64,000 nt of DNA from Escherichia coli (GTDB lineage Bacteria; Pseudomonadota; Gammaproteobacteria; Enterobacterales; Enterobacteriaceae), in the NCBI RefSeq assembly GCF_016026235.1, contig NZ_CP065613.1, one strand, 5' to 3'. Below, in pieces: positions 15,780 to 16,106 of the stretch. The first letter of the stretch is position 1. Every line of letters begins with the position of its first letter. Below the pieces are notes generated by a model. That model ran no database searches and was not told the origin of the DNA. It saw only the letters and a program-made list of their open reading frames with translations. The translations under genes were made by a program, and so were the position numbers.

Positions 15780-16106
15780 ATGTTCAGGTCACTGTTTCTG
15801 GCGGCCGCCCTGATGGCATTTACCCCGCTTGCAGCAAACGCAGGCGAAATCACCCTACTGCCATCAATCAAATTACAAATTGGCGATCGCGATCATTACG
15901 GTAATTACTGGGACGGTGGTCACTGGCGTGACCGTGACTACTGGCATCGCAATTATGAATGGCGTAAAAACCGCTGGTGGCGTCATGATAATGGCTACCA
16001 TCGTGGCTGGGATAAGCGTAAAGCATATGAGCGTGGCTATCGTGAAGGCTGGCGCGATCGTGACGATCATCGCGGAAAAGGCCGCGGACATGGACACCGC
16101 CATTAA
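15780..16106 (+). CDS. ypeC: secreted low-complexity protein rich in Arg/Asp/Trp/His/Tyr repeats (DUF2502-like)
   Basis: Signal peptide [21 protein letters not shown] followed by [18 protein letters not shown]... repeats. Confidence 0.75.

Follow-up and report, generated by a model that had tools for sequence, protein, structure and literature searches.

The closest known counterparts of YpeC are its Escherichia coli paralogue YaaX (b0005) and the product of a Serratia marcescens gene (SMDB11_2817) known as an Rcs reporter, and both are as uncharacterised as YpeC itself. YaaX shares with YpeC a signal peptide, a DUF2502 core, and a His-rich, basic C-terminus, and both are encoded by monocistronic genes induced by Rcs (as known from the literature). 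The two proteins differ in their second halves, since YaaX lacks a 20-residue segment typical of the YpeC branch and carries a Pro/His-rich tail instead. The YaaX match to the Pfam profile DUF2502 takes in only the first 61 of its 90 positions, whereas that of YpeC covers 1–90. The genes also lie in different places, yaaX next to thrC and ypeC next to mntH. The Serratia protein belongs to the same DUF2502 family as YpeC, though it resembles YaaX more. For SMDB11_2817 the promoter alone was studied, and not the protein: it was picked for its higher expression in an IgaA/GumB mutant with hyperactive Rcs, used as an Rcs reporter, and tested against rcsB mutants (PMC8470065).

Three further groups of proteins resemble YpeC in use or in composition. 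Spy, CpxP, and ZraP are, like YpeC, small, strongly induced by envelope stress, and exported (a prediction in the case of YpeC). All three are all-helical cradle proteins with LTxxQ motifs, whereas YpeC is predicted to consist of short hairpins and a disordered tail. The His-rich loop of ZnuA, the N-terminus of ZinT, and RcnB share with YpeC a clustering of His and Gly at a flexible end. Genes for His-rich periplasmic metal proteins are under metal sensors (Zur, RcnR). In contrast, ypeC has no metal-sensor site, responds to Rcs and to Mar/Sox, and has no homology to these genes. Last, the cationic peptides indolicidin, tritrpticin, and lactoferricin are like YpeC in the logic of their composition only, with no homology. 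Combining Arg with Trp is a proven way to bind anionic membranes and lipopolysaccharide (LPS). Unlike these Arg/Trp-rich peptides, YpeC is an endogenous polyampholyte of 87 residues, with 14 acidic residues and a conserved module that is predicted to fold.

We also considered a link to the WXXGXW/YXWGXW repeat (PF12779). The WDGGHW of the YpeC core fits its W-x-x-G-x-W pattern, and YEWRKNRW is a loose likeness of the second half of the repeat. The link was rejected, as neither YpeC and YaaX nor any of 53 homologues matched PF12779 even at E ≤ 10.

The ypeC gene and the DUF2502 family

The window (i.e. the whole stretch of DNA analysed here) comprises 64,000 nucleotides of an E. coli contig (NZ_CP065613.1, assembly GCF_016026235.1). 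Within it, ypeC (b2390 in E. coli) is an ATG-initiated open reading frame (ORF) encoding 108 amino acids, with exactly the coordinates reported in the earlier note; the peptide quoted there corresponds to residues 50–108. The gene name given there is also that of RefSeq, which annotates a ‘DUF2502 domain-containing protein YpeC’. The product matches Pfam DUF2502 (PF10697) over the full profile at 85.4 bits (cut-off 27, E = 3e-24), and there was no match to it among NCBIfam models. Positions of the gene, its neighbours, and the features discussed below are collected in Table 1.

Table 1. Positions of genes and sequence features at the ypeC locus, numbered from the first base of the window.
Feature	Position	Strand	Basis or remark
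glk	13240-14205	-	
yfeO	14409-15665	+	
marbox (MarA/SoxS/Rob site) gcattttttgctaaa	15661..15675	-	Exact match to published motif
Conserved block TTTAAGAGTTATGGCGATGA with half-site TAAGA (15690-15694)	15688..15707	+	Cross-genus conservation
Inverted repeat CGGGG-CTTTACCT-CCCCG	15710..15727	+	Between conserved block and -10 hexamer
Likely -10 hexamer TAATAT	15728..15733	+	Most conserved intergenic block
Shine-Dalgarno AAGGAG	15767-15772	+	Eight bases before ypeC ATG; conserved across genera
ypeC coding sequence	15780..16106	+	108 codons plus stop; ORF, Pfam DUF2502, and RefSeq annotation
Signal peptide, residues 1-21	15780..15842	+	Sequence features; predicted cleavage after A-N-A (between ANA and GE)
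N-terminal module, mature residues 1-50 (family core)	15843..15992	+	Invariant residues; AlphaFold
Mid segment, mature residues 51-75 (protein 72-96), YpeC-branch-specific	15993..16067	+	Low dN/dS
Gly/His/Arg tail, 12 residues	16068..16103	+	His-rich family-wide; sequence and length vary
REP (BIME) elements	16131..16239		REP motifs; fill ypeC-mntH gap
mntH	16247-17485	-	
nupC	17782-19023	+	

The gene is nearly universal in the species and shows the signature of constraint. Of 5426 complete E. coli genomes, 5425 contain its DNA, and each of 81 species-representative loci has an intact frame (81/81). Pairwise comparison of E. coli with ten other genera gave dN/dS values of 0.04–0.13 in the nine genera for which dS could be estimated. 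We conclude that ypeC is a real gene under strong purifying selection. Three other frames are open across the same DNA, and frameshifted versions of ypeC are numerous in protein databases. These versions are best explained as assembly errors, which survive gene calling because the alternative frames are also free of stops. The earlier note had raised the possibility that the ORF is not expressed; in published RNA-seq data its transcript changes by 24- to 60-fold. The gene is monocistronic, and no conserved operon partner of ypeC or other DUF2502 genes was present in any context examined, distant relatives included. The gene, the DUF2502 family, and the regulators of ypeC are all already on record, so no new object is described here. 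In the searchable literature we found no experiment on the YpeC protein itself.

The family is small. A profile-free, exhaustive search of 1.84 billion cluster representatives returned only 85 relatives (counted as clusters at 50% identity), and a scan of 100,044 species genomes gave 399 loci. Named members come almost entirely from Enterobacterales, including Escherichia, Salmonella, Citrobacter, Klebsiella, Enterobacter, Cronobacter, Pantoea, Serratia, Yersinia, and Rouxiella, with at least one outlier in the betaproteobacterium Jeongeupia. We aligned 53 homologues, every one of which matches DUF2502 as its sole Pfam match (53/53). All members share a signal peptide and, behind it, the core xIxLxPxxxLxIGDxDxxGxYWDGxxWR....W. 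In mature numbering, P7, G14, D17, G20, W23, D24, G25, and W28 are invariant in the alignment, and I3, L5, L11, I13, D15, Y22, R29, W34, and W45 are at least 90% conserved; the YpeC of the window has all of these residues. The core motif is doubled in tandem in distant members of the family, and in the second copies D15 and D17 are replaced by other residues.

Past the core, the sequence differs by branch, yet it stays basic, aromatic, rich in Gly or Pro, and rich in His. Net charge is positive in 90% of the 53 homologues, with a few negative members reaching down to −13. In the YpeC branch, the mid segment (dN/dS 0.00–0.04) is under constraint as strong as that on the N-terminal half, and a 10-residue stretch of it is nearly invariant in Enterobacteriaceae. 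The same segment is where units expand in homologues, the HRGWDK/RGWDR unit being duplicated in some genera. The tail is under relaxed constraint. Residues 68–108 of YpeC, used as a query, returned only three YpeC fragments in a word-index search, a method that is weak for short, biased queries.

Composition and predicted structure of YpeC

By inspection of the sequence, YpeC begins with a signal peptide, as the earlier note had stated, and this has the n-, h-, and c-regions of the Sec type. These comprise MFR with a single basic residue, a hydrophobic core of 11 residues, and TPLAANA followed by GE, where A-N-A at −3 to −1 of the predicted cut fits signal peptidase I (SPase I). There is no Cys anywhere in the protein, hence no lipobox, and there is no twin-arginine motif. 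A comparable signal peptide starts every member of the DUF2502 family. Its dN/dS in ypeC (0.05–0.40) indicates the relaxed constraint typical of signal peptides. YpeC is therefore predicted to be a periplasmic protein exported by Sec and SPase I.

The mature protein has an extreme composition. Six residues (Arg, Asp, Trp, His, Tyr, and Gly) fill sixty-three of its 87 positions (63/87, 72%). The same six make up only 24% of the 46 long ORFs in the window (binomial tail 2e-21), and in any 87-residue stretch of these ORFs their share stays at or below 45%, so that this part of the earlier description holds. The individual shares, computed on an 86-residue cut without the N-terminal Gly, are R 18.6, G 14, D 11.6, H 10.5, W 9.3, and Y 8.1 per cent. 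The net charge is +7 (21 K/R against 14 D/E). Four of the nine His residues fall within the last 15 positions. The His-rich tail, also described in the earlier note, is thus real, and it is kept across the family as a feature of composition: in 87% of the 53 homologues, four or more of the last 15 residues are His.

Hydrophilins have Gly above 6% and a mean hydrophilicity above 1. Mature YpeC, with 14% Gly and a GRAVY of −2.14, lies beyond both thresholds. Hydrophilin is in this case a label of composition and not a class defined by homology, and does not presuppose a role in water stress.

The earlier note had also described the protein as built almost entirely of repeats. When mature YpeC was compared with itself, the best internal matches were one pair of 15-residue stretches and one pair of 12-residue stretches, and 21% of 500 shuffled sequences matched or beat its score (53% when only the biased part was used). 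A strict repeat architecture was thus rejected for the E. coli protein, as its self-similarity is no higher than that of shuffled sequence. What stands of the claim is that short units expand and contract across homologues. Within YpeC, WRDRD occurs twice and GY-x-x-GW-x-x-R twice. YpeC thus has a biased composition in which a few short motifs recur, and it is not a repeat array.

We next modelled the mature protein with AlphaFold2, using an alignment of 53 sequences. Mature residues 11–50 were predicted with a pLDDT of 78–89, and the model contains a strand pair (2–6 and 9–12), a helix (31–37), and a hairpin (38–47), with the invariant residues sitting in an irregular loop. For residues 51–87 the pLDDT is below 50. 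Confidence in the N-terminal module fell to 50–60 with a shallower alignment, and we therefore regard folding of this Trp-rich module as likely but not certain. Among structures in the PDB, no solved structure resembles the predicted fold. A model of two YpeC copies joined by a Gly/Ser linker, with matched alignment rows, had a mean pLDDT of 40 and left the mid segment unordered (contacts were not reported for this run).

Promoter and regulation of ypeC

The gap between yfeO and ypeC is 114 bp. A consensus scan of positions 15600–16300 called no sigma-70 promoter and no intrinsic terminator. We aligned the upstream region with that of 23 other genera (24 in all). The upstream gene differs in most of them, being an aldo-keto reductase downstream of ipdC, and four blocks are conserved across genera even where this is the case: the marbox, a TNRGA block, an inverted repeat, and a −10 hexamer.

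The marbox reads TTTAGCAAAAAATGC on the plus strand, the reverse complement of the published motif. It faces backward relative to ypeC, overlaps the stop codon of yfeO, and is kept in nearly all of the 24 genera. The second block has the core TTTAAGAGTT at 15688–15697. Its TAAGA appears across genera as TAAGA, TAGGA, TCGGA, or TCAGA, with changes only at the N and R of T-N-R-G-A. The consensus for an RcsB box is TN(G/A)GAN4TC(T/C)NA (PMC7913699). Between 15600 and 15800 the full box has no match on either strand, and the left half-site TAAGA alone is present. We read this block as a putative RcsB contact, which either overlaps a weak −35 or lies immediately before it. Direct control of ypeC by RcsB is likely on these grounds, but unproven because the full box is absent; control by Rcs could also be indirect or need a partner regulator.

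In the −10 block, T26, A27, A30, and T31 of the alignment are invariant. With TAATAT as the −10, transcription would start near 15740. The marbox would then sit near −72, and the half-site, next to a −35 of poor quality, near −48. The layout suggests an activator-dependent promoter, and the missing sigma-70 consensus fits such a promoter. In the promoter of yaaX, TAGGA lies 38 nt upstream of TAATCT, and the spacing in ypeC is identical.

The inverted repeat between these elements covaries. Its arms pair in 80% of cells, as against 72.6 ± 1.2% in shuffles (0/500 reached 80%) and 31–49% when the 3′ arm was slid along the sequence. Both sides had changed in 22 cells, as against 9.4 ± 2.6. This repeat may serve to terminate transcription of the upstream gene, or it may be an element of the promoter spacer.

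Published work bears on the same regulators. The gene is a target of both MarA and SoxS (PMC5684230; PMC10268841): the marbox motif lies under a MarA ChIP-seq peak at ypeC in E. coli, and an identical motif under a SoxS peak in Salmonella. Treatment with a LolCDE inhibitor, which blocks the sorting of lipoproteins and so turns on Rcs, raised ypeC expression 42- and 60-fold, in a study that lists ypeC among known Rcs-regulated genes and spy beside it among the responses (PMC5105897). In an O157:H7 isolate with disrupted rcsB, ypeC was 23.7-fold lower (PMC5343319). The gene also turns up repeatedly in published gene sets of multi-stress responses and of conjugation recipients. With a marbox and an RcsB-type half-site at its promoter, ypeC therefore belongs to the responses to envelope damage (Rcs) and to xenobiotic and oxidative stress (MarA/SoxS/Rob), and not to Mn/Fe homeostasis.

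Possible functions of YpeC and the mntH neighbourhood

Our preferred reading, to which we give a rough probability of 40 per cent, is that YpeC acts stoichiometrically and non-enzymatically as a periplasmic binder of anionic envelope material under envelope stress. Arg accounts for about a fifth of the residues and Trp with Tyr for about a sixth, and the protein is net basic, which is why we infer a binder of anionic surfaces or sugars. Arg/Trp-rich peptides and carbohydrate-binding sites provide a general basis for binding to anionic polymers and membranes. No catalytic or other domain was found by Pfam over the 53 members or by NCBIfam in YpeC. The protein has three parts: a probably folded, Trp-rich N-terminal module, a tightly conserved Arg/Asp/Tyr/Trp/Gly segment for which no independent fold is predicted, and a variable Gly/His tail. 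Arginine and aromatic side chains would make the contacts when the envelope is damaged, and the His tail may add binding that depends on metal or pH. Candidate targets are the phosphates of lipids and LPS, peptidoglycan (through its carboxylates), periplasmic glucans, enterobacterial common antigen, and capsule precursors. Some observations speak against a binder of anionic material. YpeC, with its 14 acidic residues, is a polyampholyte and no simple polycation, and a few DUF2502 members are net negative. The strong constraint on the mid segment could reflect a specific protein partner just as well as a polymer.

The earlier note had suggested binding of metal or of polyanions in the periplasm, either of which is plausible for YpeC. 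The metal proposal, as a rival to our preferred reading, is that YpeC primarily binds or buffers metal in the periplasm, perhaps serving MntH. Divalent cations (Zn, Ni, Cu, Co, or Mn) would be chelated by its His/Gly tail and by acidic side chains in the GDRD...WDG loop. The His-rich C-terminus, kept across the family despite the absence of sequence conservation there, is consistent with this, as are core residues D15, D17, and D24, which are invariant or nearly so. In addition, yaaX is among the genes changed in cusS mutants, together with zraP and cus genes (PMC10920338), and a Pantoea member is named ‘Zinc ABC transporter substrate-binding protein’, although this is most likely an automatic mislabel. 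The second core copies of the tandem proteins count against metal chelation, as they lack D15 and D17.

The position of ypeC beside mntH, where the earlier note had called a functional link speculation, proved to be old. mntH lies within about 1 kb of ypeC in 67 of 79 Enterobacteriaceae loci, and it also adjoins orthologues that are only 39–42% identical. However, it is missing nearby in 10 of the 79 loci and in some distant relatives, and paralogues lie elsewhere (yaaX by thrC and another by fklB). We regard the adjacency as probably plain synteny, because glk and nupC are kept alongside ypeC just as mntH is. Moreover, ypeC and mntH are convergent, and with a cluster of REP elements between them they cannot share a promoter or a transcript. 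(Matches to Rfam naRNA4 in this gap, at 48.7 and 48.1 bits, are below the gathering score of 59.5.) At about 17495–17555, just upstream of the mntH start and on its far side from ypeC, are the MntR palindrome aaacatagcaaaggctatgttt and a Fur-like box. No site for either metal regulator is present among the conserved blocks upstream of ypeC. The known inducers of ypeC are stresses of the envelope and xenobiotics, and no paper in the searchable literature that mentions the gene concerns manganese or iron. The link to mntH is thus not supported, and we consider a primary role in metal binding unlikely overall.

YpeC might instead act on proteins, as a periplasmic chaperone or a feedback modulator of Rcs, in analogy to CpxP for Cpx and Spy for Bae/Cpx. 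The mid segment would then be a short motif that folds on binding, with IgaA, RcsF, a protein of the outer membrane, or a carrier of lipoproteins as candidate partners. Its low predicted order combined with very low dN/dS is typical of fold-on-binding motifs, and YpeC is small, carries an export signal, and is encoded by one of the genes most strongly induced by Rcs. To our knowledge the Rcs system is confined to Enterobacterales, the order from which almost all named DUF2502 members come. On the other hand, YpeC has no similarity in sequence or fold to CpxP, Spy, ZraP, or anything solved, and the tandem-copy AlphaFold run, for which contacts were not reported, gave no sign of self-association. 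The member in Jeongeupia also lies outside Enterobacterales, and as far as we know the Rcs system is not expected there. We hold such a protein-directed role to be rather improbable.

A bolder version of the binding idea is that the DUF2502 core (IGDRDxxGxYWDGxxWR) is an undescribed small Trp-rich fold that recognises a glycan or polyanion of the Enterobacterales envelope (for example periplasmic cyclic enterobacterial common antigen, osmoregulated glucans, or colanic-acid intermediates), and that YpeC and YaaX are dedicated effectors or feedback elements of Rcs. We know of no protein that currently fills a dedicated periplasmic role of this kind. The observations that bear on this idea are the small size of the family, the near-restriction of its named members to Enterobacterales, the lack of a match to any solved fold, the induction of both E. 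coli paralogues by Rcs, and the constraint on the mid segment. In the form stated here we find it quite improbable.

It is very unlikely that YpeC is a defensive decoy or inhibitor directed at an external attacker (lysozyme, another hydrolase, or a cationic peptide), a reading drawn purely from the analogy to Ivy and MliC, lysozyme inhibitors under Rcs control. Such a role would suit a small protein with an export signal whose gene shares the Rcs regulon with ivy, and ypeC is among 13 genes common to the responses of E. coli and a second recipient species to RP4 conjugation; YpeC nevertheless has no homology or similarity of fold to known inhibitors. Finally, the notion that ypeC is a spurious or decaying ORF produced by skewed codon content, which the other open frames and the many frameshifted database entries might suggest, is effectively refuted by the selection data and the intact frame, and is at odds with the conserved Shine-Dalgarno sequence and regulated promoter, the strongly regulated transcription, and the presence of the gene in all but one of the E. 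coli genomes.

These results redirect the lead offered by the locus from manganese transport to envelope stress. ypeC is an annotated gene of E. coli K-12, one of the most strongly induced outputs of Rcs, and a direct target of MarA and SoxS. We document here the predicted architecture of its promoter and a covarying inverted repeat within it, and the N-terminal module may be a new small fold. If YpeC does bind anionic envelope material as we propose, or is a feedback element of Rcs, it would fill a gap in our picture of how enteric bacteria repair or shield the envelope, and of antibiotic tolerance linked to mar and Rcs.

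Inverted repeat in the ypeC promoter

The two arms of an inverted repeat in the ypeC promoter vary across genera, with complementarity retained (arm pairs AAAGC/GCTTC in Salmonella, GGAGC/GCTCC in Klebsiella indica, and ATGT/ACAT in Phytobacter). Eighty per cent of inverted-repeat cells were paired versus 72.6 per cent in shuffles, and 0 of 500 shuffles scored as high. The promoter of yaaX, the E. coli paralogue, also contains inverted repeats at the same position. The ypeC repeat could be a promoter-embedded terminator of the same-strand upstream gene, or a spacer element.

We compared window 15665-15780 with ypeC-family loci from other genomes (L011-L084). 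In most other Enterobacteriaceae, an insert of about 3 kb (ipdC and an aldo-keto reductase gene) separates yfeO from ypeC, while Escherichia is without it. The ypeC promoter blocks are kept with or without this insert.

Features described in this section (window positions unless a locus is given)
Feature	Position	Strand	Remark
GC-rich inverted repeat	15710-15727		adjoins ypeC -10 hexamer
Stop-free frame over ypeC	15829-16188	+	
Stop-free frame over ypeC	15868-16119	-	
Stop-free frame over ypeC	15873-16127	-	
REP/BIME cluster	16131-16239		between convergent ypeC and mntH
mntH control region	17495-17555	-	MntR-type palindrome and Fur-like sequence
P0170 (DUF2502 protein)	L091 5001-5375		Jeongeupia sp. 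HS-3

Surroundings of mntH and overlapping frames

Immediately 5' of the mntH start codon lie a perfect MntR-type palindrome, aaacatagcaaaggctatgttt, and the Fur-like gataatcattctc. The REP/BIME cluster matched Rfam naRNA4 at 48.7 and 48.1 bits, both sub-threshold (gathering score 59.5).

The restricted set of codons that ypeC uses leaves three additional stop-free frames over the gene. Many chimeric ypeC products are on record in protein databases; in them a +1 frame shift is followed by read-through of the REP elements, ending in ...MPDATLARLIRPTNRLFNA. Since the ypeC frame is intact in 81/81 species-representative genomes, these chimeras look like assembly or sequencing errors.

On a 398-nt contig of 'Rhizobium wenxiniae' HU50 (L006, the whole contig), the encoded YpeC matches that of E. 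coli at every residue, and a contig labelled 'Chryseobacterium sp. 18061' (L068 1-10225) carries the full enterobacterial glk-yfeO-ypeC-mntH-nupC locus. Both are probable cases of contamination or mislabelling in public assemblies.

Distant DUF2502 members

The database name of one Pantoea member, 'Zinc ABC transporter substrate-binding protein', is probably an error of automatic annotation. Two distant proteins, P0170 and P0183, end in CPPGQAKKGNC, a motif of RcnB/CigR-like periplasmic proteins. Given the host of P0170, the DUF2502 family extends to a betaproteobacterium.
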